From positions 30,403 to 94,402 of IMG/VR virus record IMGVR_UViG_3300034073_004910: a stretch of DNA of 64,000 nt; one strand, 5' to 3'. The stretch is from a virus. The position numbers were made by a program, and so were the translations under genes. Shown here one piece after another: positions 6,283 through 19,952 of this stretch (its first letter is position 1; the number at the start of each line of letters is the position of its first letter). The notes beneath the pieces are model-generated. The model did no database searches. It was not told where the DNA came from and saw only the letters and a list, made by a program, of their open reading frames with translations.

Positions 6283-6630
6283 TAGTGGGAGTTTTTCTGT
6301 TGCGAGGAGGTTCCTTTGGGGAACACAAAACTCCCGAAACCCCGAGAAATCATGCTGCTACAGCATATTCCTCATTATAAAAGTCATCGTTTGCTTTTAT
6401 ATTTATTTGCTTCTTCGACCGGGAAGTCCCAATCCTAACGGCTTTCGCATTGCCGGATCGTCCGCGTCTTTTTCCTGCTCTGTCGAAACCAGAACACCCC
6501 CATCAAAGTATACTCTGTCGCCGTTTTTGCTACGCTGGTAACGACCAAGACCTCAAAGAATATACTTTGGTGGAGGTGGGCGGAGTCGAACCGCCTTCCA
6601 AAACAGTTCCAATCAACATCATACGATCAT
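6283..6630 (-). ncRNA. ssrA: Circularly permuted (two-piece) tmRNA; tag ANDDFYNEEYAVAA at 6350-6394; outer ends approximate
   Basis: acceptor piece GGCGGTTCGACTCCGCCCACCTCCACCA (ends 6568) precedes coding piece GGGGGTGTTCTGGTTTCGAC (starts 6501); G3.U70 pair; tag ends in AA. Confidence 0.9.
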
Positions 6631-6700
6631 AATTGCTCAGTTTGGATTCGAACCTTGTCCGTGTATTGTCTACCCGCACGTCCCACCGTACTGACCGAGC
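6631..6700 (-). ncRNA. tRNA-like small RNA or degenerate tRNA upstream of the tmRNA
   Basis: 7-bp stem GCTCGGT/ACTGAGC, D-like arm, GGTTCGAATCC loop; poor anticodon arm and T-stem. Confidence 0.55.
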
Positions 6701-6757: not shown

Positions 6758-7014
6758 GAATTATTTTTGGGGAGGCTAGCGTTTTTATGACTATAAAACT
6801 CCTCTAAGTGCTCTTTGAAAGTGTTATAAGTTTTGTCAAACTTATAGCTATAGAGAGTTACAAGCGAGAGCATAAAATTGTCGATTTTATCCGTAAACTC
6901 AGCCGACAGCCCAGCAAATTCTTCGCTATCCAAAACTTCTCGAAAAAGTTTCAGATCGTCAATAATTTGCCAGACTTCCATAAGCTGTTGTTCAAGATCA
7001 AATTGTTTGCTCAT
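6754..7014 (-). CDS. Hypothetical protein (QFDLEQQ family; paralog of 7689..8153)
   Basis: shared N-terminus MS.QFDLEQQ.M..W.I.DDLK. Confidence 0.75.
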   Translation of the reverse strand: MSKQFDLEQQLMEVWQIIDDLKLFREVLDSEEFAGLSAEFTDKIDNFMLSLVTLYSYKFDKTYNTFKEHLEEFYSHKNASLPKNNS

Positions 7015-7199
7015 TTTACTTTCGCCTATTTAAGATTGCTGAAGATGCTCTAGCGTATGTTGAATTACAAGTTGAGTGTAGCGCTGTAGTTCTTCGTCAT
7101 AGCTACAAGACCAGTCAATTCTTTCATTGTTTTGGTTCCACTCTTCAGCTTCCCAAAAAGCAAAACCTGCTTGACGAGCTAAAAACCAAAAAATTTCGT

Positions 7200-7406
7200 T
7201 CACAGTCCAGCACCCTCTTTCAGCATTGCATCAGCAAAAGCATAAGCATCTTTTGCATACGTGCTAAATCCGCCCGCTCGCTCAGAGTCGGCAAGCATTC
7301 CAGCGAGGGCCTGCCCCGCGAAGTAGTCACGCAGGGACATGCCCGGACAAAAGTTTTTCAAGTCTCTATGGGTCGGGAATGCCGTCCCACCATCATTCTT
7401 CATCAT
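7200..7406 (-). CDS. Conserved small phage protein (GG.AFP...GMSLRDYFA)
   Basis: recognisable motif. Confidence 0.75.
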   Translation of the reverse strand: MMKNDGGTAFPTHRDLKNFCPGMSLRDYFAGQALAGMLADSERAGGFSTYAKDAYAFADAMLKEGAGL

Positions 7407-7473
7407 TTTCTATTTCTCTTTTCGATTTCAGAAACTATTATGACACGCCTCGACCAAAGAGTCAACAACTGTT

Positions 7474-7701
7474 TTATGTCTGGCCATAATAGTCCAAGAT
7501 GCGGAGAATTGCACGAATAGTTTTTCTAATCTTTTTTAGATCGGTCTCAAGATCAGAAGAAAATACTCCTGCCGGAATATTGCCGTTTTTTCGAGATTCA
7601 TACTCTATTTGTAAGTTAGTTAAATTTTGGTGTAAATCTTGGGTAACAATCTCACAAACCATAGGATACGGAAGTTCTATTTGCATTTTTAAATCTCCCA
7701 A
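7474..7701 (-). CDS. Hypothetical protein
   Basis: ORF in operon. Confidence 0.55.
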   Translation of the reverse strand: MGDLKMQIELPYPMVCEIVTQDLHQNLTNLQIEYESRKNGNIPAGVFSSDLETDLKKIRKTIRAILRILDYYGQT

Positions 7702-8153
7702 TCAGGCGGACTAGAGCGATTCTTCAAAAATTCTCGTATCTCTTTGGCATAATGTTTAGCAACGGTTTCTGAAACCCCAGCATACTCAAAACGCTCTGCA
7801 TAAGACTCCAACATTTCTTCCGGCGTAAGCGGATAAGTTTCAGGCTTATTGATCCCCCTCATTGACTCTATACGGTCTGCTAAAGGTGTTAACGTTTCTC
7901 TGGGAGAAATGTCGGCAAGCTCGTATGGTTCAATCTTGCCAATCTCTTTCAGCATTTTCTCAAAAGTTTGAAATAGCTGATCAAACTTTAGATGATACAG
8001 CTTACTGATCCCCATCAATATGGTCGGGACTTCATCAGAGTCCTCGAACAAAGTATCAGAACTGTAGATCGACTTAAGATCGTCTACTATTCCCCAGCAG
8101 TCCATAATTTGTTGTTCTAGATCAAATTGAGTTGACATAGGTTTTCCTTTCAA
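7689..8153 (-). CDS. Hypothetical protein (QFDLEQQ family)
   Basis: paralogy with 6754..7014; likely start at MSTQF. Confidence 0.7.
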   Translation of the reverse strand: MKGKPMSTQFDLEQQIMDCWGIVDDLKSIYSSDTLFEDSDEVPTILMGISKLYHLKFDQLFQTFEKMLKEIGKIEPYELADISPRETLTPLADRIESMRGINKPETYPLTPEEMLESYAERFEYAGVSETVAKHYAKEIREFLKNRSSPPDWEI

Positions 8154-8366
8154 AACTATTCTCTTGTAATCTTCTGGCTAAGTATTTTAATAGATCCTTG
8201 TATACGATCAAATCTATTAATCCTCATGCTCTTAAAAGAAGCTCCAACTACTCTAAGACCATAACGCTCGGCTCTCACTAGCTTTTCTGCGGCCATCCTC
8301 GTTGGAGCTTCTACTTCTATCTCTGCTTTTAAGATATACTTATATTTCATCTCAGAGACTCCAGTT

Positions 8367-8840
8367 TTAATCCCAAAGATGTGAGTAATACTTTCCAAAA
8401 AGTCTAAAGCCATTTTGTATGCGATCACAATAGTCGTAATATTCTTTTGGGAGAGTAAACTCTCGTGTTTTAACTCGAAAAGATTCTTCGTCCTCTGCTT
8501 CTACCTCGGGAAAGAACTGATCTTCCCAGCTTTCGTCAATTTTATTATCAAACGCAAAGATCATCTCATCCAGTATCCAGTCCCACCGATCAAAATGAAA
8601 TTCATCGATTTCCCATACATCTTCTTTGGGGGAAGCCGAAGTAGATCGTAGGTGCTCTGGTACATCTTCGTCATCGGTATTCGGAGCACCGTGCTTAGTT
8701 GTCTTTAGCTGTTTCAGCATAGGAGAAATTATCAGCGCAAGAGTATGCTCCATATTGTAGGTATCCCACTTATCTATGCGAATCTCTATACTTCTTTCCT
8801 CGTCGTAACTGTCGGGGTAAGGACCAATATTTACATACAT
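8367..8840 (-). CDS. Conserved phage hypothetical protein
   Basis: IRIDKWDT...WDWILDEMIFAF...GFRLFGKYY.HLWD; GGAG RBS. Confidence 0.8.
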   Translation of the reverse strand: MYVNIGPYPDSYDEERSIEIRIDKWDTYNMEHTLALIISPMLKQLKTTKHGAPNTDDEDVPEHLRSTSASPKEDVWEIDEFHFDRWDWILDEMIFAFDNKIDESWEDQFFPEVEAEDEESFRVKTREFTLPKEYYDYCDRIQNGFRLFGKYYSHLWD

Positions 8841-8966
8841 AAGTAGCTCCTAGAGTTAGGCTTCGCTACCCGGCGGCGAATAGCGAAGCCTTTTGAATTG
8901 TTCAATGACTCTCTAACTTTCGGATATATAATACCGAAAACGAGCTATCAAGTCAAGAACTAAATT

Positions 8967-9314
8967 TTAGAAGTACCGACGAATTTCTGTCTCGACCCGA
9001 GAGCCAATTTCACCTTCGAAGCTGTCAAGCTGAAAGGTTTCTACTTCTCCTCGAATCTCCCAGTTATCCGCGAACGGAATCGAATAGCCAGCCTCCAGAG
9101 CAAGCCCATACTCACCGTCATAAAATGCCGGACCTACTTCGGCATACAGGTACTTTCCCTGAGCGCCAAGGCTTACAGTATTAATCGAGCTATTGTCTAC
9201 ATAGTGTTCGTCAACAAAACCGACCTCGTTTCGATACTCGCCATAGAAACGAACCTCTGCCAAAGCAGAGCTTGCAACTGCCAGCAGTCCAGCTGCGATA
9301 AGATATTTAGTCAT
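8967..9314 (-). CDS. Small outer-membrane beta-strand protein
   Basis: Sec signal (ALA-E), amphipathic strands, C-terminal Phe (EIRRYF). Confidence 0.65.
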   Translation of the reverse strand: MTKYLIAAGLLAVASSALAEVRFYGEYRNEVGFVDEHYVDNSSINTVSLGAQGKYLYAEVGPAFYDGEYGLALEAGYSIPFADNWEIRGEVETFQLDSFEGEIGSRVETEIRRYF

Positions 9315-9323
9315 ACATTCTCC

Positions 9324-9842
9324 TTAAAATTTTGTTAGCATTGAAAGAGCTTCTTCAGTGACTTCTTCTGTTCGGCGGCTCCAGCCCTTTCCAAAAACTG
9401 GAAAAGTAGAAAGTCGACGATAGTAGTCAAGTCGAAGCGTTTTAAATTCCATAATCGCCACTACAGGATTATGAATGTTTAATGCTGCACTAATGGTACG
9501 GGGCCCAAGCACGCCATCCTCTTTAGCTTTTACAATTTTTTGTAAAAATCGAACAGCGCGCGAAGGCCCCGCGTTGACACCAAAATCAAATACTATTAAA
9601 TCAATACCTACAGGTAATTGATCGCAGGACATGCGGTCCCAGTATTGCTTTCGGTAGATAGGCTCAACATCTTTTATCGTCAAAGCTTTAATGTCTTCGA
9701 CCGATACGGTTCGTTTCACCCATCGTTCATAGGTGGCTTTTGTAATGCCAAGATTTGTAGCACCTCCTGGATCTTGGGGATGGTTTACAAAGCCACCTTC
9801 GTGTTTTAGAACAATTTTTAGACAGTGATCAAACGTTTTCAT
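9324..9842 (-). CDS. Endolysin, GH108 muramidase with peptidoglycan-binding domain
   Basis: HEGGFVNHPQDPGGATNLGIT motif and FGKGWSRR C-terminus; start set to MKTFD. Confidence 0.92.
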   Translation of the reverse strand: MKTFDHCLKIVLKHEGGFVNHPQDPGGATNLGITKATYERWVKRTVSVEDIKALTIKDVEPIYRKQYWDRMSCDQLPVGIDLIVFDFGVNAGPSRAVRFLQKIVKAKEDGVLGPRTISAALNIHNPVVAIMEFKTLRLDYYRRLSTFPVFGKGWSRRTEEVTEEALSMLTKF

Positions 9843-9982
9843 TCGTGAAAGCTGCATCAGCCTTTTCAGGCTTCTTGGCAGCATTTGCCAGTGCATGATT
9901 TAATACTTTTAAGGCCTCGCTAGGCTTATCATTCCACAAAGCTTGAATTGCTTCTAGCATTGCCTCCATATTTTCATCGCAC

Positions 9983-10228
9983 TTACAATTTTTGCACGCC
10001 ATCGCTGTGTTTCTCCACCTCCACAAGAATGTTCTCACACAATCTTCGGAGCTCGTCCAATAGAACGTAGTATTTTTGTACATCAATTAATTTTTCAATT
10101 AATTCATTCGGTAGTCGACTTTTCAGCCGTTCAGCCTCTAGTTCATTTCGTAGCTGCTCGACTTCGCTGGGTAAACCTCGCTTTGGATGAGCTATTTCTA
10201 AAGCAAATCCACACTTGGTACAATGCAT
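9983..10228 (-). CDS. Hypothetical protein (CxxC)
   Basis: ORF in operon. Confidence 0.55.
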   Translation of the reverse strand: MHCTKCGFALEIAHPKRGLPSEVEQLRNELEAERLKSRLPNELIEKLIDVQKYYVLLDELRRLCENILVEVEKHSDGVQKL

Positions 10229-10231
10229 AAT

Positions 10232-10468
10232 TTAAACAAACTCTTTTAAACGTCTTACAAGAGCGTCTCTGCCCGCCTTTACTCCCGATGCTCTTTCAGA
10301 AAGATCAAGAGCATTTCGTTGAGAGTCGATAGTAGCTATCGCTTCTCTCCACAATAAAACAGCAAATTCCTCAATATCTGAAGTAGTTATACCGCTTGCA
10401 ACGCTAGGAATATCTGAGCTTGTTACAAGCCCCGCTTCGGCTGCCAGTTCAAATATACGATTTGTCAT
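10232..10468 (-). CDS. Hypothetical protein
   Basis: MTNRIFELAAEAG-type small phage protein. Confidence 0.6.
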   Translation of the reverse strand: MTNRIFELAAEAGLVTSSDIPSVASGITTSDIEEFAVLLWREAIATIDSQRNALDLSERASGVKAGRDALVRRLKEFV

Positions 10469-10470
10469 GA

Positions 10471-11304
10471 TTAATTAGGCGGAGCGTTTACTGCTGACAG
10501 TGCGCTGAGATTTCCTTGGAATCCGTATGTTCCCACATGAGTGAGAGAAATCCAAGGGCAAGCCCAAACTTTTAATCCAATATCAATAATCTTTCGCGAA
10601 AAGTAATAATCTTCGGAAAGATAACGTCGGCTAACCGGATCAATTGCACAGTCAAAGTATGCTACAATATCTCTCTCGCCGTTAAAGTCTGTCGAGTATT
10701 TGTGATCTGGCGAGTACGAATTTTCTGGGTAGGCAGCTTTAAACTGATCAAACACATGCCGTTGAATAAGCATAAATCCAGTAGCGCCTTCTAAAATTTG
10801 TACCGGCTCAGTAAGTTTAAAGCTTTCTGTGCCAGGAATCAAATTAAAAGCAAATCCTCCTCCAAACTGAGCAAGTTCATCAGGATTTTTAAGTTCAATG
10901 TTGTCTTGAACCGCCTTTTGAATACGATCCCAGTGAATTTGTTTTTTCGGATACAGCCCACAAAGCACATCATATTCAGACTTTTTATCGGCCAAAGCCA
11001 GCATTCCTAGAATATCCATAGGATTAAAAGAAATGTCAGAGTCGATAAACATCATGTGCGAACAGTCGCTACGCAAAAATCCATCTACTAGATAGTTTCG
11101 TGCTCGCTGAATCAGCGATTCATTATAGTGAAAACTAGCATCCCATTGAAGATCGTATTGGCGACAAACGGTAGAAAACTGAAGCATAGAGTGAACGTAT
11201 GGTCCAGTGCACATACCGCCGTACATAGGTGTAGCAATGAAGAGTTTTCGTTTTCGAAGCTCTTCAATATCAATCGTTATTTTTCTATCCTCTACCTTGG
11301 CCAC
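10471..11304 (-). CDS. GT-A fold glycosyltransferase-like phage protein
   Basis: LFIATPMYGG, FIDSD (DxD), ATGFMLI and YLSEDYYF motifs. Confidence 0.8.
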   Translation of the reverse strand: MAKVEDRKITIDIEELRKRKLFIATPMYGGMCTGPYVHSMLQFSTVCRQYDLQWDASFHYNESLIQRARNYLVDGFLRSDCSHMMFIDSDISFNPMDILGMLALADKKSEYDVLCGLYPKKQIHWDRIQKAVQDNIELKNPDELAQFGGGFAFNLIPGTESFKLTEPVQILEGATGFMLIQRHVFDQFKAAYPENSYSPDHKYSTDFNGERDIVAYFDCAIDPVSRRYLSEDYYFSRKIIDIGLKVWACPWISLTHVGTYGFQGNLSALSAVNAPPN

Positions 11305-11610
11305 GATATTTTTTGTAACTCCTTTTTTGATGTTTAGACATTGTGCTTCGCTTCATCATACTAGGATTACCGCTCGATGAAGTACGCTTCGGCTTGTGCT
11401 TAATCTTTTGTTGTTGTTTCGAAGCCGTTGATCCTTTAGCCATTTTTTGCCTTTTCTATTGCTTCTAAAAAGTAAATGAACGTGCCATCCGGCTGTTCTT
11501 CTACACGATAGCGAGTTGCCCAGTCGCGCGCTTCCGCTTCTGACGAAAAAAGATCAGAAAGAATGCCGCCACTAGGCAACTGCCAAGACCACGTATTTTC
11601 TAATAATCCT

Positions 11611-11904
11611 TTATTCTTCACCAACTTCACGAGGGTCGTCTCCTGCTAGAAGCGAGAGATAAAAAATTGCTTTTCGAATATCTGCTTCCATATTGTCCTT
11701 AAAAGGAGCGCGCATAAGGTACGCAAGAGCTGAGCAATAGTAATGCGGCTCTATAGACGAAGACATTACATACGACTCTGCATCAATTTTATCGCACAAC
11801 GCTTCCAAAATACTAAGAACATCGGTATCAAAAGTTTCTTCAGAGTTTACGCTCTTTACATTACAAAGCTGATAATGCTGAGGGTGATTAATAAAATCTT
11901 CCAT
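11611..11904 (-). CDS. DUF3310-like protein
   Basis: INHPQHY...YLMRA..K...DIRKAIFYL. Confidence 0.75.
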   Translation of the reverse strand: MEDFINHPQHYQLCNVKSVNSEETFDTDVLSILEALCDKIDAESYVMSSSIEPHYYCSALAYLMRAPFKDNMEADIRKAIFYLSLLAGDDPREVGEE

Positions 11905-12299
11905 TAGATATCTCCTTTTGCGCGATTTTCAGAATTTTCTACTTGAAATCCGTTTGGATAACGAGCGCTCAACTTATGAATATTTTCATTAATAACCGAT
12001 TGCGGATCGAACTCGAGTGCTCGACAGGCCGAAATCCAATAAAAGAAAATATCTCCAAGTTCGCGCTTCATGTGATAGATATTATCACCTGTCATGGGCT
12101 TGCCTTGAAAGAAGATTTTCTTCACAACTTCTTGAAACTCTCCAGTCTCGCTTCCCAGCCCAATGGCAGAAGTGAGAAGCAGCGGAGCATTGACAGTATC
12201 ATTATGCAACTCTCGAAGGCGATCTGCAAAGGACGTTAGATAAGTACTTTGATCGCTAGTAATACTCGCAATAAACTTTGAATACTGATTAAGATTCAT
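11904..12299 (-). CDS. mazG: MazG-like nucleotide pyrophosphohydrolase
   Basis: GLGSETGEFQE...RELGDI...NIHKLSARYP. Confidence 0.85.
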   Translation of the reverse strand: MNLNQYSKFIASITSDQSTYLTSFADRLRELHNDTVNAPLLLTSAIGLGSETGEFQEVVKKIFFQGKPMTGDNIYHMKRELGDIFFYWISACRALEFDPQSVINENIHKLSARYPNGFQVENSENRAKGDI

Positions 12300-12945
12300 C
12301 TTTTTTTCCGTTCAATAGTTCGAAAAGAATTTGTCCACAAGCCTGAGCAATTTTTTGATGCTCTTTTTGAGTTCCATTTGCGGAGCGCAGTTCTACATAA
12401 TGTAGCCAAGATCGCACTGTACCCGCCATATAAAGACGCGAAGGCGTCATACCTTCTGGAAGAACAGCTCTCGCTTGCTCTTTTGCTATTCCATTTTCCA
12501 GAGCACTATTATACACATCTTGAGCGTGCAATGCAAGTTCTTTTTGTAGCGTTGCCCAAAGTTCGTTCAAATTTTCATTTGTAGATTCAATGGAGTTTTG
12601 TCGATTTTTTGTATCTTGAAGCCTGGTTTCTCGAATTTCCCACTCCGTTGGGACGATTGAGTATCTTTGGCTAAACTCCTGAAAGGAAAAGCTACGATGC
12701 CGAAGTATTTGACGAGCAATGTCTCGAGTTGTATTAATTTCCATACAAACCCAAGCCATTTCAAATGGACTCCAGTGTCCATGTTTTTGCAAATAATTTA
12801 ACAGCTTAGGAGCTGTTTCTGTATTTATTTGATTTTCTGGGTTTGATACTCGAGCAACATACGCAATCAAATCAGATAAAGTTTGCAGACCAAGAGATTG
12901 TAAGTCTTCGCTAGGAGTGGAGTAAGAAATTAATTTTACATTCAT
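12289..12945 (-). CDS. thyX: Flavin-dependent thymidylate synthase
   Basis: RHRSFSFQEFSQRY signature, HWSPFE. Confidence 0.96.
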   Translation of the reverse strand: MNVKLISYSTPSEDLQSLGLQTLSDLIAYVARVSNPENQINTETAPKLLNYLQKHGHWSPFEMAWVCMEINTTRDIARQILRHRSFSFQEFSQRYSIVPTEWEIRETRLQDTKNRQNSIESTNENLNELWATLQKELALHAQDVYNSALENGIAKEQARAVLPEGMTPSRLYMAGTVRSWLHYVELRSANGTQKEHQKIAQACGQILFELLNGKKDES

Positions 12946-13114
12946 TCTAAAAGCTCTAGCTGTGTTCTCAGCGCCCAGCCATTTTTAGGCCAAGTATTAT
13001 TGTCAATATACCTAAAACAAAAGGAGTCTAACTTAGGTATATATTTTGTAAGCTCAACTACCGCATAGGGTCCACCAAAAAAGCGAACTCGAACTATGTG
13101 TCCTACTTTTAATT

Positions 13115-13309
13115 TCATAAAGGTTCGAAGTGAGTTGTAGGAGCCCAGCCTTTTTTAATTATACTTCCTGGGCTCATAATTTTAAAGTAAAAGCCATCTA
13201 CTTCTACTTCTTCACTTTGAGGAAGATATTTAGTAAGCTGAACTTCTACATAAACGTTCTCTAAAAGACGAATTTTTGCTCGATCTCCGACTTTAAAAGG
13301 GATTGTCAT
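13115..13309 (-). CDS. Hypothetical protein
   Basis: ORF in operon. Confidence 0.5.
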   Translation of the reverse strand: MTIPFKVGDRAKIRLLENVYVEVQLTKYLPQSEEVEVDGFYFKIMSPGSIIKKGWAPTTHFEPL

Positions 13310-13699
13310 ATACTATTTTAGCAGTCAGCATACTAGTATCAGTCTTGAGAATAAGCCAATCCTCTTTGTCTATTGTAAAAGTTACCCAGAGAAGATCGGG
13401 GTCTTTCTTAAAGAGCGATGCCTGTTCGTACACTTCGATCGGAGTCACGCTTTTCAGTTCGCTCCTCTTCCCGTAGCAGATGTTCGTGATACTTTTTGAC
13501 ATAAGTTCCTCGTTCTTCTGAGTTCCAGATAAGAGTTCCATATTTCCAGGCTTTTTCTGCTTGTCGACTACACGTTCCGACTTTTCGTCTTTCTAAAATT
13601 TCATACTGAATACTCATAGTCTCTCCGTAACAAACCAAACAAGTAGGCTAAGCCAAGCGACCCCGCCGACAATGAAAATAAGAGCTGCAAATCGGTCTT

Positions 13700-14065
13700 T
13701 CATAGCACTCTCATTCTGATAATTACACGACTGGGGCGATTGTCATTAATAGTGAGAGAAACTTCATTACTGCGACGAGACTCTTTCAGTTCTGCACTTG
13801 TCGCCGTCAATGTAAAGTAATGAGTGCCAGGAGCAAGATTATTTAATGCAATCGAGCGAGTAGTAGGAGAAATTGTAGTCTTTCGTGTGTACTGACCGGA
13901 AGTAGTTCCTCGATACAATGTATATTTTACAATGTCTCGAGATGGAGTTAAAGTTCGTCCGTCTTCATACTTTGTAGGAGCAACAAATCTTAATACTGTA
14001 GTTGTGTCTGCATAAGCAGCTCCGCCAATAAAAGTCAATAACAAAAGTAGTTTTTTCATAGCCAT
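13700..14065 (-). CDS. Exported fibronectin type III domain protein
   Basis: signal peptide AYA-D; Y.LY.G..SGQY...LAPGTHYF.LTA...ES..SNEVS. Confidence 0.75.
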   Translation of the reverse strand: MAMKKLLLLLTFIGGAAYADTTTVLRFVAPTKYEDGRTLTPSRDIVKYTLYRGTTSGQYTRKTTISPTTRSIALNNLAPGTHYFTLTATSAELKESRRSNEVSLTINDNRPSRVIIRMRVL

Positions 14066-14702: not shown

Positions 14703-14770
14703 CGAAAAAGTAAAGTCAAAAAAATTGATTGCCAAGAGCGCCCTTCAAATCAAACCAACGAATGGTTATT
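14703..14770. repeat. 68-bp direct repeat, copy 1 (copy 2 at 16000-16067)
   Basis: 67/68 identical by eye; includes the -35 region of a minus-strand promoter. Confidence 0.9.
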
Positions 14771-14903
14771 TTAGTTTCCTGATGATTGGTTCTGCTTTAA
14801 TAAAGGGAACGAACGGCCACACAAACAGTAAAGCTGCAACTACTGTTACTATTATCAGAGGCCATGCAATGGTTAGAATAACTCTGTTTAGAACTTCTTT
14901 CAT
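14766..14903 (-). CDS. 45-aa membrane peptide (MKEVLNRVILTIAWPLII...)
   Basis: ATGA-coupled to the upstream Gly-rich gene. Confidence 0.6.
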   Translation of the reverse strand: MKEVLNRVILTIAWPLIIVTVVAALLFVWPFVPFIKAEPIIRKLK

Positions 14904-15160
14904 TTCCTTCTGCCTCTTCCAGACTCGACGTTCCCGTAGCCGTAGCCGCTGCTATAGCCGTCGCCATAGCCGCAGCCACCGCCGTAGCTGTAGCCGTAGC
15001 CGTAGCCATCCCCGTTGCCGTTGCCGTAGCCATTACCGTCGCCATAGCTATAGCTATAGCCATTGCCGTCGCCGTAGCCGTAGCCGTAGCCATCGCCATC
15101 TCCGTAGCCATCGCCGTTGCCGTAGCCGTCACTGTAGCCAATCGGATAAAAGCTATTCAT
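14900..15160 (-). CDS. Gly/Tyr-rich repeat protein 3
   Basis: FYPIGY-(GYGDG)n-VESGRGRRK; coupled start/stop. Confidence 0.75.
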   Translation of the reverse strand: MNSFYPIGYSDGYGNGDGYGDGDGYGYGYGDGNGYSYSYGDGNGYGNGNGDGYGYGYSYGGGCGYGDGYSSGYGYGNVESGRGRRK

Positions 15161-15417
15161 TCCCGCCTACTTCTCCTAGACTCGACGGTCCCGTAGCCGT
15201 AGCCGTCGCTGTCGCCGTAGCTGTCGCCGTTGCCGTAGCCGTCGCCGCAGCCCTCGCCGTAGCCCTCGCCGTAGCCGTAGCCCTGGCCGTAGCCGCATCC
15301 CCAGCCGCATCCCCAGCCGCCGCCGTCGCCGTTGGCGTAGCCGTCGCCGTTGCCGTAGCCGTAGCCCTCGCCGTAGCCGTAGCCCTCGTCGTAGCCAACC
15401 GGGTAAAAGATATTCAT
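15157..15417 (-). CDS. Gly/Tyr-rich repeat protein 2
   Basis: FYPVGY-(GYGxG)n-VESRRSRRE. Confidence 0.75.
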   Translation of the reverse strand: MNIFYPVGYDEGYGYGEGYGYGNGDGYANGDGGGWGCGWGCGYGQGYGYGEGYGEGCGDGYGNGDSYGDSDGYGYGTVESRRSRRE

Positions 15418-15668
15418 TTTCTTCTCTGCCTCCCAGACTCAACGGACCCGTAGCCGGAGCCGGAGCCGCGTCCGTAGCCGTAGCCGTTGCCGTAGCCGTA
15501 GCCGCGTCCGTAGCCAGCATCGTCGGCGTAGCCGTCGTCGCCGCCGTAGCCGTTGGCGTAGCCGTCGCCGTTGCCGTAGCCGTAGGCGTTGCCGTAGCCG
15601 TTGCTGTAGCCCTTGCCAACCGGACGAAAAACGACGGCTTGATCCCCCGCCGTCACTTGAGCCCCCAT
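15414..15668 (-). CDS. Gly/Tyr-rich repeat protein 1
   Basis: FRPVG-(GYGxG)n-VESGRQRRK; probable GTG start overlapping the upstream TGA. Confidence 0.7.
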   Translation of the reverse strand: MGAQVTAGDQAVVFRPVGKGYSNGYGNAYGYGNGDGYANGYGGDDGYADDAGYGRGYGYGNGYGYGRGSGSGYGSVESGRQRRK

Positions 15669-15946
15669 CCGTCACGAACGGGCACGCAGAATATCTCCGC
15701 ACCCTCCGGCATATCTACGTCGGCAATTGGACGCAGATCGGCGTTCTCGGTCTCGACCATTTTTGCAAATCCAATGGAGTCCCAAGAAAAAACATGAATT
15801 GCTCTACTTAGGCGAATTCGACCGTTCTCGCGAGTCACATCGCCTGCGAAGATCCAGCCACGGTCAACGACCACGACCGCACGAGTACCAGTCGGACGAT
15901 TGCCAACCGGAGCATACTCAACACCATTGATGATTAAATTTTCCAT
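15653..15946 (-). CDS. Small beta-rich protein (Sm-like/DUF6948-like) heading the Gly-rich operon
   Basis: VVVVDRGWIFAGDV...IRL..A..V..W..G; family name from recollection only. Confidence 0.65.
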   Translation of the reverse strand: MENLIINGVEYAPVGNRPTGTRAVVVVDRGWIFAGDVTRENGRIRLSRAIHVFSWDSIGFAKMVETENADLRPIADVDMPEGAEIFCVPVRDGWGLK

Positions 15947-15999
15947 ATCAATTCCTTCTATGCTTTCCCAATCAACCAATATAGTATAGGCTATTCAGT

Positions 16000-16312: not shown

Positions 16313-16523
16313 GACTAAGCTCCTTTCTCAGCTCCAAAATTTCATCACAAAGCCGATCAATGATACTTTCTTGAGCGTCGATCGTATCTGCAAACTCTTT
16401 AAGTTGCAAACTCATTCGAGTTATGGTAGCCAAATGCTCGTCACAAAACTGACAGTCGTACATTTTTTGCCTCAATACTTTGTAGTAGCTCAAGATATGC
16501 GAATTTTCCCATTTGAAGTACAT
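16305..16523 (-). CDS. Hypothetical coiled-coil protein
   Basis: ORF downstream of a consensus promoter; true start uncertain. Confidence 0.5.
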   Translation of the reverse strand: MYFKWENSHILSYYKVLRQKMYDCQFCDEHLATITRMSLQLKEFADTIDAQESIIDRLCDEILELRKELSRV

Positions 16524-16613
16524 ATTATAAAGTAAAAGAAGGAGTTTGTCAAGAGTTAAAATTATACATGCTAAAAATAACTCTTGACAATATGCTCAGT
16601 ATTTTTTATAATA
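16524..16613. promoter_or_regulatory. Divergent consensus sigma70 promoters, TTGACA-N17-TATAAT on both strands
   Basis: minus strand 16524-16552, plus strand 16585-16613. Confidence 0.85.
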
Positions 16614-16635: not shown

Positions 16636-16785
16636 ATGAGATGGAGCTACAAAGAAAATGTAATACTACAAAAAAATTATGGCAAGTGTTCATCAGAAGA
16701 GCTTTTAAAGCTACTGCCGGGCAAGAGCCTGAACAGTATTTATGCTCAGGTTCACCGACTAAGGAAAAAAGGATGGCGACTATAA
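16636..16785 (+). CDS. 49-aa Myb/SANT-like HTH protein (MRWSYKENVILQKNYG...SIYAQVHRL)
   Basis: GGAG RBS; WS..E..IL pattern; not in the ORF track. Confidence 0.7.
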   Translation: MRWSYKENVILQKNYGKCSSEELLKLLPGKSLNSIYAQVHRLRKKGWRL

Positions 16786-17027
16786 TACCCTTTCCTGTGC
16801 AGCCTTATACACGCACATCGCGACGAGAAGACTATCTTCAGTATTTTTATTATACAGTAGCGTCACTGGCAAATGAGCTGGACATGGATACGGAGAATCT
16901 AGAGGAAGACTTTGCCGTATTGTTTGAAAACATAGAAACTTTAGTAAATAAGCATCTGGAAATTTATGATTATACAAGTGAAGAATTTGGATCGAGCGAT
17001 GAAGAAGTTCAAGAGATTATCGAATGA
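16773..17027 (+). CDS. Acidic hypothetical protein (MATIIPFP...)
   Basis: AGGA RBS; start moved from 16641. Confidence 0.6.
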   Translation: MATIIPFPVQPYTRTSRREDYLQYFYYTVASLANELDMDTENLEEDFAVLFENIETLVNKHLEIYDYTSEEFGSSDEEVQEIIE

Positions 17028-17160
17028 GAAACTTCTAGATTTGAGAAAGTATGAGTACTGGGAAAAGCAAAGTGTTCGAAAGCGACGGCGACTTAACTCC
17101 GCCAAACGACGGGAATATTTACGCCAGCGAAACAGTGAGAGTAACGATACGAAGTATTGA
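16966..17160 (+). CDS. rpsU: Ribosomal protein bS21
   Basis: V.NLDRAMKKFKR...LRKYEYWEK.SVRKRR. Confidence 0.85.
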   Translation: MIIQVKNLDRAMKKFKRLSNEKLLDLRKYEYWEKQSVRKRRRLNSAKRREYLRQRNSESNDTKY

Positions 17161-17332
17161 AAGCTCTAACTGGGAGCGCCGACCTACCGAAACCAAGATC
17201 GTTCATGTACTTAGCGGTACACTTACTTTAAATGGAAAACCGGTACATTCAACTGCAACAATTTTGCCAGGTACTTGGCACAGGTTTGCAGGCCCCGCTG
17301 AAATATTAGAAGTAGTTCACTACTCTAAGTGA
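17051..17332 (+). CDS. Small cupin-like protein
   Basis: E..VHVLSGTL...I.PGTWHRF. Confidence 0.5.
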   Translation: MSTGKSKVFESDGDLTPPNDGNIYASETVRVTIRSIESSNWERRPTETKIVHVLSGTLTLNGKPVHSTATILPGTWHRFAGPAEILEVVHYSK

Positions 17333-17333
17333 G

Positions 17334-17365
17334 AAAAATAGCGAGCTTAGTCTCGCTATTTTTTT
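17334..17365. terminator. Bidirectional intrinsic terminator
   Basis: AAAAATAGCGAG-cttagt-CTCGCTATTTTTTT. Confidence 0.8.
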
Positions 17366-17377
17366 ATTTAAAAAATT

Positions 17378-18115
17378 ATGCATAAATATGAAACTGTCTT
17401 TATTTCCGACCTGCATCTTGGCAGCAAAGGCTGCCAGGCGGAGAAACTGAACGAATTTCTAAAAATTGTAGAGTGTAAAAATCTTTTTCTAGTGGGCGAT
17501 ATACTTGACGGCTGGAAAGTTGCTCAAAATAAAATGCACTGGAAAAACTCTCATACGAGCGTAATTCGTCATATTCTTCGACTGGCAAAGAATGGTACGA
17601 AAGTTCATTATGTTGTGGGCAATCACGATGAGTTTCTTCGACCCCTGTTAAAGTATTCCATGACTTTTGGACGAATTGAAATTGCAAACTCTTTTACTCA
17701 CGTTGGGCTGAACGGTAAACGATATCTAGTAGTGCATGGAGATTTTTTCGACGGCATTACTCGATTGGCTCCGTGGCTAAGCTTTTTAGGTGATCGAGCT
17801 TATGGAATATTGCTTAGTATAAACTACCGATTTAACTGGATACGCCGTAAGTTTGGTTTTGGATACTGGAGTTTGAGTGCTTGGCTGAAGCATCGAGTGA
17901 AAAGAGCAATTGACTTTTTATTTGAGTTTGAAAACAATATTACTAGCTATGCGAACCGAAAAGGTTATCAAGGAGTAATTTGTGGCCACATTCATACTGC
18001 TAGTATTAAAATGATTAACGATATTGAATACATGAACGACGGAGACTGGGTAGAATCTTGTACTGCACTGGTCGAGACCGAAGAAGGAGAATGGAGAATA
18101 TTATGCTTGTCCTGA
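17378..18115 (+). CDS. plcP: PlcP-like phospholipase C (LpxH-like metallophosphoesterase)
   Basis: SDLHLG, GDILDGW, GNHDE, HGD.FD, WL..LGD.AY, YWSLS.W.K..VK.A, ICGHIH, N.GDWVESCTALVE; coupled to a GT4 gene. Confidence 0.8.
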   Translation: MHKYETVFISDLHLGSKGCQAEKLNEFLKIVECKNLFLVGDILDGWKVAQNKMHWKNSHTSVIRHILRLAKNGTKVHYVVGNHDEFLRPLLKYSMTFGRIEIANSFTHVGLNGKRYLVVHGDFFDGITRLAPWLSFLGDRAYGILLSINYRFNWIRRKFGFGYWSLSAWLKHRVKRAIDFLFEFENNITSYANRKGYQGVICGHIHTASIKMINDIEYMNDGDWVESCTALVETEEGEWRILCLS

Positions 18116-19053
18116 TTACTGACGCCTGGCATCCGCAGGTAAATGGAGTTGTTACCACTTACACAAACATACTGAATCATTTGACAATTCCGTATGAAGT
18201 GATTTCACCTCAAAACTTTAAATCAATTTACAATCCTTTTTATCCAGAAATTCGACTGGCTTTACCTTTTGGATTGAAACAAAAATTACTTAGTTACGAA
18301 CCCAACACTTCATTTCACATTGCAACTGAAGGACCGCTCGGCTGGAGAGCTCGCAGCATATTGAACAAAGCGGGACGAAGATACAGTACAGCTTTTCATA
18401 CACGCTTTCCTGAGTACTGTAACGTACGCTTTGGAATTCCAGTAAGCTGGGGATATAAATTTATAAATAAATTTCATTCCACTTCCAGTCGAGTATTTGT
18501 ACCGTCAAATGAAATTGCAAAAGAGTTTTCGAACCGATCAACTGCTGTAATTTCTCGAGGCTACGATACGGAATATTTTTATGACGATAAGAAAATGGAA
18601 AGAAATAGCATACTGTATGTCGGACGACTGAGCAAAGAGAAAAACATAGAAGCCTTTTGTTCATTGCCGTATGACAATCTCGTAGTAGTTGGCGATGGCC
18701 CCGAGCGCAAAAGACTGGAGCGTAGATATAAAAATGTTCAGTTTGTGGGCTATAAGTTTGGACAAATTCTAGGCAATTATTATCGGCAAGCAAAAGTAAC
18801 AGTATTTCCCAGCAAAACGGATACATTTGGAATCACTTTACTGGAGGCAATGGCGTGCGGAAGCCCCGTGGCGAGTTATAACTGTAACAATACTAAAAAT
18901 ATAATTATAAATGAATTGAACGGCTATCGCAATGACAATCTACATTTTGCTGTCAAAAAGTGTTTGACGATGAACAACAAAAGTGTAGCGAAAAGCGTGA
19001 CGAAATATAACTGGCCTGAAGTGGCTCAAGAATTTCAGAAATGGCTGGTATAG
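18103..19053 (+). CDS. agt: GT4 glycosyltransferase, Agt-like diacylglycerol glycosyltransferase
   Basis: TDAWHPQVNGVV, YPEIRL, HIATEGPLG, HTRFPEY, FPSKTDTFG..LLEAMACG. Confidence 0.8.
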   Translation: MLVLITDAWHPQVNGVVTTYTNILNHLTIPYEVISPQNFKSIYNPFYPEIRLALPFGLKQKLLSYEPNTSFHIATEGPLGWRARSILNKAGRRYSTAFHTRFPEYCNVRFGIPVSWGYKFINKFHSTSSRVFVPSNEIAKEFSNRSTAVISRGYDTEYFYDDKKMERNSILYVGRLSKEKNIEAFCSLPYDNLVVVGDGPERKRLERRYKNVQFVGYKFGQILGNYYRQAKVTVFPSKTDTFGITLLEAMACGSPVASYNCNNTKNIIINELNGYRNDNLHFAVKKCLTMNNKSVAKSVTKYNWPEVAQEFQKWLV

Positions 19054-19120
19054 TTCGCACACAGTAAGATTTAATTAACCCCTACTCAAAAATAAAATAG
19101 TACTTTTTTAACTGAAAGAC

Positions 19121-19149
19121 TTGACTTCTTACAAAAGTCATGATATAAT
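19121..19149 (+). promoter_or_regulatory. sigma70 promoter TTGACT-N17-TATAAT with no downstream ORF
   Basis: hexamers and spacing. Confidence 0.75.
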
Positions 19150-19187
19150 AATAGCATATAATTTATTACAAGCGACATTAACAGTTT

Positions 19188-19317
19188 CGTGCTAGGGTCT
19201 GGGAACTAGTTTAATTGATTAGTAAGCTGCATGATCACCTCTCGGGAGCCTGAAGCGGGAGAGAGGACAGTGATGCTGTTTACAATCTAATGTTAGTTGT
19301 TTCCATACCCTAGCACG
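19188..19317 (+). ncRNA. Candidate rod-shaped ncRNA
   Basis: CGTGCTAGGGT.../...ACCCTAGCACG closes a ~130-nt bulged hairpin. Confidence 0.55.
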
Positions 19318-19610
19318 CGGTTTTTACATACCCTAAACGTGATTTCATTCTAAATATACGGTTTACATAATTGAATTTTACGGTTTGTATGGTTGAATGA
19401 ATTGAAATTGCGGTTTGTAAAAACTACAAAGTTCTAATCAATAATAAGTCGTAAAGTTTATTTGATTTATGTAATTACGTACAATATGAAGTCTAATTGC
19501 GTCAATTCGCGATTCTCGGGCGATACCGTTTATTGATTTTTGAATGAGCTGAGGAATTTAATAGCTAATAAGCTTATCTTAAATTTATAGGTAATTTTTA
19601 TTAATTGTCT

Positions 19611-19952
19611 CTAGCTTTGGGCCTTTATGCTTGCATGTTTCTCCAGTATTGCTTTTTCCAGCAGTTGAAGTTCCAGCTTAGGAGCTTTTTCTAGTCCTTG
19701 AATACGCTCTGGGTTGAGGTTCAACAACCCCGCCAGGCGTGCAATAATCTCCTTTTTGGTTTCTGGTAGCTCGCCTCGCTTATTGAGATACCGCGTCTTT
19801 TCATACACTCCTTCTCTTGCTAGCTTGCCGATGATGCTTTTTTCGCTCTTGGAATAGCGGTCCGCCAGCTCCTCAATAGCACGCCTCTTGTTCTCACTCG
19901 CCACATAAAACGATACGATCTCATTAGTAATTTCTAGGTTGTAATTGCTCAT
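19611..19952 (-). CDS. T5 A2-like DNA-binding protein (paralog 1)
   Basis: ELA..Y.KS.KSIIGKLAREGVY.K...K.G...KKE...GLEKA.K. Confidence 0.65.
   Translation of the reverse strand: MSNYNLEITNEIVSFYVASENKRRAIEELADRYSKSEKSIIGKLAREGVYEKTRYLNKRGELPETKKEIIARLAGLLNLNPERIQGLEKAPKLELQLLEKAILEKHASIKAQS

Follow-up and report, generated by a model that had tools for sequence, protein, structure and literature searches.

Replacement of phospholipids by glycolipids is a major form of phosphorus saving in bacteria, in oceans, lakes and infections, and the locus analyzed here raises the question of whether a phage carries the enzymes for such a replacement and to what end. The window (the whole stretch of DNA that was analyzed, 64,000 nt) belongs to a 94,402-bp IMG/VR record with a CheckV completeness of 91% and includes the hallmark genes for terminase, portal, protease/capsid and a T5-type major tail protein; the carrier is an uncultured T5-like freshwater/subsurface phage of 94 kb and of lytic type. 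A tmRNA matched the Rfam family beta_tmRNA at 85.5 bits, barely over the threshold of 84. Two genes on the plus strand are at issue, plcP (17378..18115, 245 aa) for a PlcP-type metallophosphoesterase, i.e. the phospholipase C of lipid renovation, and agt (18103..19053, 316 aa) for a GT4 glycosyltransferase of the Agt/GTcp clade, a predicted diacylglycerol glycosyltransferase. The initial annotation had placed both ORFs at these positions within a small plus-strand island and had described the motifs of both proteins as intact. The two ORFs were re-found in the ORF list, the island (ORFs from 16641 to 19053) was located between minus-strand genes ending at 16523 and beginning at 19611, and the catalytic and metal-binding residues proved invariant in alignments, as detailed below. 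The ORF list gave two candidate starts for agt, 18058 and 18103, with the end at 19053 for both; the ATG at 18103 is favored since it is supported by the relatives and by a GGAG ribosome-binding site in front of it, and would give an overlap of 13 nt with the end of plcP, whose stop codon lies at 18113-18115. We estimate a probability of about 0.65 that the pair is a phage-borne bacterial PlcP-Agt operon converting host phospholipid into glycolipid, with phosphorus for phage DNA as the favored benefit. The operon was identified from the integrity of the genes, from family assignment by sequence, fold and synteny, from the distinctness of PlcP from LpxH and from its recurrence in phages.

Judged by its sequence, the product of the first gene is a PlcP-type enzyme, for which Mn-dependent hydrolysis of PE, PG and PC is predicted. 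It matched Pfam Metallophos at 5e-13, and the five metallophosphoesterase motifs (D11/H13, D41/D44, N82/H83, H120 and H204/H206) were invariant in a 40-sequence alignment. The aa identity was 49.8% to the orthologue of P. aeruginosa PA3219 and 45.3% to that of S. meliloti SMc00171, values comparable to the 46.6% shared by these two orthologues and to the 46–51% published for pairs of characterized PlcPs. The references used for PlcP and Agt are species-level orthologues from other strains, chosen by gene neighborhood (that of PA3219 by the adjoining PA3218 glycosyltransferase and cyaB), rather than the exact proteins assayed, and the functions of the studied PlcPs are taken from PMC8528852 and PMC4796936. 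An AlphaFold2 model (pLDDT 83.4) showed a metallophosphoesterase core with helices at residues 121–194 inserted as a lid. Genes for phosphorus-free lipid synthesis that are paired with plcP include agt, btaBA and pgt, and here the 3′ end of plcP is overlapped by an Agt-type glycosyltransferase gene, corresponding to the “type 2” arrangement of PMC4796936.

The second gene product is, on the same kind of evidence, an Agt-type GT4 enzyme with diacylglycerol as predicted acceptor and UDP-Glc, UDP-GlcA or UDP-Gal as predicted donor. It matched Pfam Glycos_transf_1 (1e-22) and Glyco_transf_4 (3e-07), with invariant GT4 catalytic and donor-binding residues (H99, R175, E179, K180, D240, T241, G243 and E248). 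Full-length alignment with P. aeruginosa Agt1 gave 39% aa identity over 323 columns, and the Kordiimonas glycosyltransferases encoded downstream of plcP gave 39–41%, values well above the <25% that separates the Agt/GTcp clade from other GT4 families; similarity to E. coli WaaG and WaaB was restricted to the C-terminus (27%), and 39 Agt-type rows were separated from WaaG/WaaB in the tree (99). The Agt/GTcp clade has been defined by a GRVAXEKN (GRxxxEKN) motif, an FPSXTDTFG motif, an N-terminal Gly-rich motif and a His-Asp dyad in which Asp replaces the usual GT4 Glu (PMC8231724). The counterparts in the phage protein are GRLSKEKN (174–181), FPSKTDTFG (235–243) and QVNGVV (12–17), and the dyad is formed by H99, equivalent to the published His104, and D240. 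The AlphaFold2 model (pLDDT 93.3) adopted a retaining GT-B fold with MshA as rank-2 match and with BshA, PimB′ and sucrose-phosphate synthase also among the top folds. The C-terminal loop on the donor side, ASYNCNNTKNIIIN, departs from the consensus AAYPVTGPxDVI, which may affect the choice of sugar or even activity. The protein carries a short deletion and belongs to a sub-clade otherwise found in contigs of T4-like phages.

The association of the two families was examined in bacterial, viral and metagenome loci with room downstream of the plcP homologue. The counts with an Agt-type glycosyltransferase following were 26/32 in bacteria, 42/66 in IMG/VR and 38/49 in metagenomes; the pairing is therefore not attributable to chance. 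Bacteria have kept the tandem, as have many viral contigs, those of T4-like and probable jumbo phages among them. The phosphate-binding gene pstS occurred in the same locus as the homologue in 14/80 IMG/VR and 15/79 metagenome loci, and directly adjoins it in Pelagibacter phage Mosig and in one probable jumbo-phage contig. Mosig, which infects HTCC1062, and Synechococcus phage S-SRM01 are cultured phages with a plcP. In two samples of 401 genomes each, the best aa identities were 55% for a class represented by a MAG with the label Rickettsiales and 53% for that of a Porticoccaceae MAG; the genomes counted included G245, G713, G546, G701 and G444, and no claim depends on any one of these five alone. 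One sequence of G713 (row L143) entered both trees and the alignments A1 and A2. Relatives at 60–71% identity were all in viral or metagenome contigs, and for this reason no donor or host is named. Of the PlcP rows, 27 formed a virus-associated clade. A Coraliomargaritaceae MAG includes a 212-kb contig with a PlcP of the viral clade, and that MAG yielded no gene for a T4-type major capsid protein (Gp23, PF07068). In the literature, no paper was found that describes the PlcP-Agt lipid swap as a phage trait.

The plus-strand island is headed by a sigma-70-type promoter at 16584..16612 (+) with a perfect 12/12 match, TTGACA-17-TATAAT, and a second perfect 12/12 promoter at 16552-16524 faces the opposite direction. 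Promoter-like sites were no more numerous in this region than expected from shuffling, and the call therefore relies on the two perfect matches and their position, not on site count. The promoter at 16584..16612 is likely to drive the island, with plcP-agt reached by read-through. Between the promoter and the pair, the first island gene (16641..17027, +, 128 aa), which is without a Pfam or PHROG family, is 51% conserved in L149 and L151, two contigs of the sister phage. A 64-aa ORF (16966..17160, +), 75% conserved in the same contigs, weakly resembles ribosomal protein bS21 (E of only 0.014 to phrog_21469, “ribosomal protein S21”) and had no Pfam match. A strong hairpin followed by a T-run (17326..17370, +), spotted by eye, lies 8 nt ahead of the start codon of plcP; folding gave a dG of −17.7 kcal/mol and a z of −3.8. 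It resembles a terminator, attenuator or RNA-stability element, and a consensus terminator scan of the region found none and did not flag it. As a terminator-like hairpin directly precedes plcP, it is uncertain whether transcripts starting at the upstream promoter reach the pair. Pho-box control, another feature by which PlcP operons are recognized, was not found near the island: a search with CTGTCATNNNNCTGTCAT at up to 3 mismatches gave no match there, this consensus being one that may differ from the host's own, and the whole window gave 3 matches where 4.1 were expected. The failure of the initial annotation to see a Pho box by eye was thus borne out.

Taking these features together, a course of events in the infected cell can be proposed. 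PlcP, a Mn-dependent, LpxH-like enzyme with a helical lipid-binding lid, would cleave host PE, PG and PC into diacylglycerol and a phospho-head group, and translationally coupled Agt would use a host UDP-sugar to attach glucose or glucuronate to the diacylglycerol, giving a phosphorus-free glycolipid and keeping the bilayer intact. E. coli makes neither the glucosyl nor the glucuronosyl glycolipid. Host phosphatases and metabolism would then free the head-group phosphate, most plausibly for phage DNA synthesis in phosphorus-poor fresh or subsurface water. PlcP itself releases phospho-head groups and not free phosphate; no phage-encoded phosphatase was identified. From textbook counts, the few million phospholipids of a small cell roughly correspond to ten or more 94-kb genomes. 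With a host-type promoter and no Pho box, lipid conversion could be imposed irrespective of host phosphate signaling. We infer what the two enzymes catalyze, when they are expressed and that phosphorus gain is the selected benefit. This purpose, which the initial annotation had also proposed, receives indirect support from the frequent linkage of plcP and pstS in other phage contigs, and is weakened in the present phage by the lack of both a Pho box and pstS, which makes the tie to phosphate stress an indirect one here; pstS was not found in this phage, and phoH is present elsewhere in its genome. It is conceivable, and put forward tentatively, that PlcP and exchangeable Agt-type partners form a mobile viral module exchanged among unrelated lineages of aquatic phages (T5-like siphophages, T4-like myophages and probable jumbo phages). 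In the present phage, expression from a host-type promoter would let the virus strip phosphorus from the membrane regardless of signaling, and infection would then drive a shift from phospholipid to glycolipid in phosphorus-poor waters.

The same biochemistry could serve a different end, in that a changed envelope might block adsorption or DNA entry of competing phages, alter receptors or keep the membrane stable until timed lysis; effects on receptors or superinfection had also been named in the initial annotation. A constitutive-type promoter without a Pho box at the head of the island and the absence of pstS from the phage would fit this explanation, and lipid renovation has been argued to alter membrane proteins and phage adsorption (PMC9804370). 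However, plcP repeatedly travels with pstS in other phages, which points to phosphorus economy, and a lipid change in the inner membrane is an indirect route to masking receptors on the outer surface, so that we regard an envelope-directed benefit as unlikely. Less probable still is that the phosphoesterase is a nuclease or general phosphodiesterase and that the GT4 enzyme acts on a polysaccharide, a protein or a teichoic-type polymer, with no link to lipids. The best PHROG matches of the first protein were indeed to “DNA repair exonuclease” and SbcD-like families (E 1e-10 to 1e-4), and the acceptors of the very large GT4 family are many, but the PHROG matches were limited to the shared N-terminal motifs, and PlcP-Agt is indicated by full-length similarity, the lid insertion, the motifs of the glycosyltransferase clade and conservation of the tandem alike.

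The distinction between PlcP and LpxH deserves closer attention, as the source annotations of the first gene read “UDP-2,3-diacylglucosamine pyrophosphatase LpxH” and virus surveys place such genes under lipopolysaccharide (LPS) biosynthesis (PMC10653327, PMC9611531), which would make the pair one that modifies LPS. LpxH is also the nearest solved structure: the two proteins have in common a calcineurin-like metallophosphoesterase core, an inserted helical lid and the metal motifs, and the top 23 PDB fold matches of the PlcP model were all LpxH, covering the full length but at only 18–20% identity in structural alignment. At the sequence level, phmmer of PlcP against the PDB gave no match, LpxH structures included, and similarity to E. 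coli LpxH was 27% over 128 N-terminal residues only, against 45–50% to the PlcP references. The scores against the LpxH equivalogs, 50.9 bits for NF003743 (cut-off 134) and 39.2 bits for TIGR01854 (cut-off 190), fell below the family cut-offs, with matches covering only residues 5–123, the N-terminal half. In gammaproteobacterial genomes with a PlcP relative, a true LpxH scoring 247–293 bits was also present in 5/5, showing the two to be paralogous within the same genomes. The initial annotation had named grouping with LpxH as the outcome that would speak against it. In a Maximum Likelihood tree, LpxH, used as the PlcP outgroup in the literature, was cleanly split from 60 PlcP-type rows, which include the window protein and both references, with support of 100/100 and a branch of 6.2 substitutions per site. 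A constraint holding LpxH together with the window protein was not rejected in an AU test (p 0.61); with a stem of such length, the attachment point of LpxH is arbitrary, and this value therefore bears on the root of the PlcP tree and not on membership. Orthologue similarity, the split from LpxH, the published Agt motifs and conserved synteny thus all agree with the plcP-agt-like identity first proposed, the survey label lpxH for the viral gene appears to be wrong, and we consider an LPS-modifying LpxH pair very improbable.

Equally improbable is that the pair arose by chimeric assembly or is a passenger in decay, without function in the phage: the source is a metagenome assembly and the island is transcribed against its neighboring genes, but the pair and its two junctions with flanking phage DNA are spanned by contigs from other freshwater studies, the sister phage has plcP at the same position (71% protein identity, a divergence at which synonymous sites are saturated), all catalytic residues are intact, and the composition of the pair (GC3 0.36) is like that of phage core genes (0.37–0.39). 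Megablast of the region against GenBank phages gave no match, and no RNA run was among the sequencing runs listed for the stretch. Based on the hallmark genes, the core-like GC3 and the junctions bridged in independent freshwater runs, the PlcP-Agt pair appears to be genuinely resident in the phage.

If phages use this pathway, phosphorus-related phage genes would extend from uptake (pstS, phoA) to the mining of an internal pool. Counts of viral “lpxH” in metagenome surveys would then reflect lipid renovation rather than LPS synthesis, and infection may account for part of the signal in the lipid ratios by which phosphorus stress is gauged. The present locus would add a small T5-like phage to the carriers of plcP, with a version uncoupled from the Pho box.

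Among known systems, the closest counterparts are the bacterial PlcP-Agt operons, such as PA3219-PA3218 of P. aeruginosa (PMC8528852) and plcP with PB7211_960/GTcp of SAR11 HTCC7211 (PMC4796936, PMC8231724), with further examples of lipid renovation in S. meliloti (SMc00171), B. cenocepacia (BCAL2364-2365; PMC13691135) and M. trichosporium OB3b (PMC9239053). Phaeobacter sp. MED193, like OB3b, is a laboratory strain in use for work on the pathway. The phage pair shares with these operons the two protein families, gene order, overlapping or tight spacing and catalytic motifs, and its identities (45–50% for PlcP, 39% to Agt1) are within the between-reference range. It differs from them in its lytic-type T5-like carrier, in the lack of a Pho box and of dagK, in being preceded by a consensus promoter of host type and by a hairpin, and in a glycosyltransferase of the T4-like-phage sub-clade that shows a short deletion and diverges in its donor-side loop. 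The pstS, phoA and phoH genes of cyanophages and pelagiphages are likewise host-derived genes of aquatic phages that affect the phosphorus economy of the infected cell, but serve external phosphorus uptake, whereas PlcP-Agt would mobilize the internal pool of membrane phospholipid; plcP and pstS are physically linked in Mosig and in many viral contigs, but not in this phage. Viral lipid metabolism also includes the fatty-acid desaturases of cyanophages and the sphingolipid synthesis genes of Emiliania huxleyi virus. The enzymes and chemistry of these systems differ from those of the present pair and, to our knowledge, none removes the head-group phosphate of bacterial phospholipids; what they have in common with the proposed action of PlcP-Agt is that viral enzymes rewrite the membrane lipids of the host.

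The window covers bases 30403–94402 of a 94,402-bp IMG/VR virus record (CheckV completeness 91%). Its genes include those for a large terminase, a portal and a protease/capsid, together with a major tail protein gene whose product shares ~33% identity with its counterparts in T5-like Vibrio phages; four tRNAs and one permuted tmRNA are also present. This two-piece, phage-encoded tmRNA (6345–6664, minus strand; tag ANDDFYNEEYAVAA) scored 116 bits against the Rfam tmRNA_permuted model and 85.5 bits against beta_tmRNA (threshold 84). At 0.36 each, the GC3 values of plcP and agt were close to those of the genes for terminase, portal and tail (0.37–0.39), and the stretch carrying the pair recurs in sequencing runs of multiple freshwater and aquatic studies, with contigs spanning both genes at ~98% identity and crossing the junctions at 17285–17511 and 19006–19220. 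A GC-rich block of three Gly/Tyr-repeat ORFs (14703–15999) was absent from a variant in an independent freshwater run, where one contig joins 14702 straight to 16000; read depth over the repeats was many-fold above that of the flanks, indicating similar repeats in many other genomes of those samples.

As described in the initial annotation, the pair lies in a small plus-strand island, which is bounded by minus-strand genes ending at 16523 and beginning at 19611. The island is headed by a perfect TTGACA-17-TATAAT promoter (16584–16612, plus strand), paired with a divergent second promoter that is also perfect. This is followed by a 128-aa ORF with no function assigned, a 64-aa bS21-like ORF (16966–17160) with a weak match to phrog_21469 (E 0.014), no Pfam match and 75% conservation in contigs L149 and L151 of a sister phage, and a strong hairpin with a T-run (17326–17370) directly before plcP (gene 1; 17378–18115, 245 aa). 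The most likely start of agt (gene 2; 18103–19053, 316 aa) is the ATG at 18103, which has GGAG 9–12 nt upstream and gives an N-terminus in agreement with all relatives, so that the two genes overlap by 13 nt. Directly downstream of agt are a promoter close to consensus (TTGACT-17-TATAAT plus an upstream TG, 19121–19149), a long imperfect hairpin (19188–19317; 130 nt, dG -60.5, z -5.0) and four or five copies of an (A/G)CGGTTT motif. The region 19121–19430 showed no ORF or Rfam match and could be an ncRNA or an origin/iteron region.

The database label of gene 1 is LpxH, the lipid A enzyme, but its sequence identifies the predicted product as PlcP-type. Pfam returned only the general metallophosphoesterase domain, scores for the NCBIfam LpxH equivalogs were 50.9 bits (cut-off 134) and 39.2 bits (cut-off 190), with coverage of residues 5–123 only, and a phmmer search of all PDB sequences gave no match despite the many LpxH structures there. 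Named PlcP references were drawn from PLSDB, which includes some chromosomal DNA filed as plasmids. In the P. aeruginosa record, the plcP homologue is followed by a glycosyltransferase (GT) gene and a convergent adenylate cyclase gene, an order we take to be PA3219-PA3218-PA3217 (cyaB); in the 3.72-Mb S. meliloti record labelled pSymB, the homologue lies near a LuxR-type regulator, presumably SMc00171 beside sinR. These S. meliloti and P. aeruginosa records (including CP090106.1 and NZ_CP137508.1) are probably mislabelled or misassembled, three P. aeruginosa “plasmids” of 96–167 kb carrying an apparently chromosomal PA3217–PA3219 region. Gene 1 shared 49.8% identity with the P. aeruginosa reference and 45.3% with that of S. 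meliloti, the two references sharing 46.6% and characterised PlcPs having published pairwise identities of 46–51%. Identity to E. coli LpxH (b0524) was 27% over 128 N-terminal residues, and P. aeruginosa PlcP matched LpxH equally weakly. All five gammaproteobacterial genomes holding a ~50%-identical relative of gene 1 also encode a separate true LpxH, with LpxH-profile scores of 247–293 bits for the latter and 40–56 bits for the relative, like the phage protein.

This assignment, anticipated in the initial annotation, was borne out in a maximum likelihood tree of 67 sequences, in which a branch with a length of 6.2 substitutions per site (support 100/100) separated the seven LpxH from all other sequences, with the window protein and both references on the non-LpxH side. 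When the LpxH stem, which is very long, was attached to the branch of the window protein, an AU test did not reject the topology (p 0.61); the result leaves the root of the PlcP tree unfixed and is not evidence that gene 1 is LpxH. In the AlphaFold2 model (pLDDT 83), helices are inserted into the phosphoesterase core at residues 121–194. The best 23 PDB matches of the model were all LpxH at 18–20% identity, a predicted fold consistent with PlcP as a paralogue resembling LpxH and having a lipid-binding lid. The metal-binding residues were all invariant. Identification of gene 1 as LpxH was thus rejected on the sub-threshold equivalog scores, the separate clade and the true LpxH coexisting in the relatives' genomes. 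Viral “lpxH” genes have been filed under LPS synthesis in surveys (PMC10653327, PMC9611531), and full-text searches found no paper linking PlcP to phage genes.

Counting only loci with room downstream of the PlcP homologue, an Agt-type GT follows in 26/32 bacterial, 42/66 IMG/VR and 38/49 metagenome loci. Phage origin can be demonstrated for many of the viral contigs: a gene for a T4-type major capsid protein was present in four of five long IMG/VR PlcP contigs (127–262 kb; two rated complete), a virion protein is encoded next to plcP-agt on a 350-kb contig, and a 113-kb contig (L037, rated 32% complete) carries a phage-type DNA polymerase gene followed by pstS, plcP and genes for a RimK-like protein, another phosphoesterase and an Agt-type GT. 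A related metagenome contig, Ga0214917_10000315, carries at 6968–13777 pstS, a gene with no assigned function and plcP, then genes for a RimK-like protein, a second metallophosphoesterase (phrog_1649) and an Agt-type GT; the cluster adjoins a phage DNA polymerase and is a probable jumbo-phage locus. Among 50,697 GenBank phage records, PlcP homologues were found only in two uncultured records and in two named phages, Synechococcus phage S-SRM01 and the cultured Pelagibacter phage Mosig, and an Agt-type GT in none.

The window PlcP fell within a 27-row clade (91/97) of sequences from viral and metagenome contigs, from Mosig and from a small number of MAG contigs, of which at least one is a misbinned pelagimyophage contig. 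The MAG “Rickettsiales bacterium MED606” includes NZIN01000059.1 (17,579 bp), a record that also appears in IMG/VR as a viral contig; this contig encodes a PlcP almost identical to that of Mosig and is probably a pelagimyophage fragment; a Crocinitomicaceae MAG has a T4-type capsid gene on a contig other than that of its PlcP entry (L006). The closest relatives of the window PlcP (71%) were on short contigs of a T5-like sister phage with shared flanking genes, whereas the sister GT (L150, 933–1856) shared only 39% identity with the window agt and belonged to a different clade; the window agt instead grouped with GTs from T4-like phage contigs (support 99). The two genes therefore differ in history, which suggests that the GT partner of plcP has been exchanged among phages.

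By analogy, the most likely benefit of the pair would be phosphorus supply, because pstS is linked to plcP in other phages, occurring in the same locus in 14/80 IMG/VR and 15/79 metagenome cases, often directly downstream, and adjoining the PlcP homologue in Mosig. One 94-kb genome demands ~189,000 phosphates, and by a rough estimate the needs of about ten genomes could be supplied from a few million phospholipids. Several features of this 94-kb T5-like phage argue against simple phosphate stress as the explanation: the constitutive-type promoter, the hairpin before plcP, no pstS found by tblastn of the whole phage genome and no Pho box found near the island, where a dedicated search agreed with the earlier inspection by eye. 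A PhoH-family protein (PF02562, 142 bits) is encoded outside the window (record coordinates 18709–19284, minus strand). The main rival explanation is that the pair changes the host envelope, for example against superinfection, and lipid renovation has been argued to alter phage adsorption (PMC9804370).

In the known pathway, PlcP turns phospholipid into diacylglycerol, which Agt turns into monoglucosyl- or glucuronosyl-diacylglycerol (PMC4796936, PMC8528852, PMC8231724, PMC13691135); the phage PlcP would likewise release diacylglycerol from host phospholipid, and the phage Agt would glycosylate it to the same products. The Agt/GTcp clade is characterized by GRVAXEKN and FPSXTDTFG motifs, a His-Asp dyad in which Asp takes the place of the glutamate typical of GT4, a Gly-rich motif at the N-terminus and <25% identity to other GT4 families (Wei et al., PMC8231724). 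Gene 2 carries GRLSKEKN, FPSKTDTFG, H99, D240 and QVNGVV, and its predicted product is Agt-type, in line with the intact GT4 motifs and Agt likeness first noted. It shared 39% identity over its full length with the P. aeruginosa Agt1 orthologue and 39–41% with Kordiimonas GTs downstream of plcP, GTkg being from this genus (PMC8231724), as against 27% with E. coli WaaG and WaaB in the C-terminal domain only. The model (pLDDT 93) has a retaining GT-B fold, with MshA, the template used for GTcp, as second-best structural match. The donor-side loop reads ASYNCNNTKNIIIN in place of the AAYPVTGPxDVI of most members, so that sugar specificity may differ.
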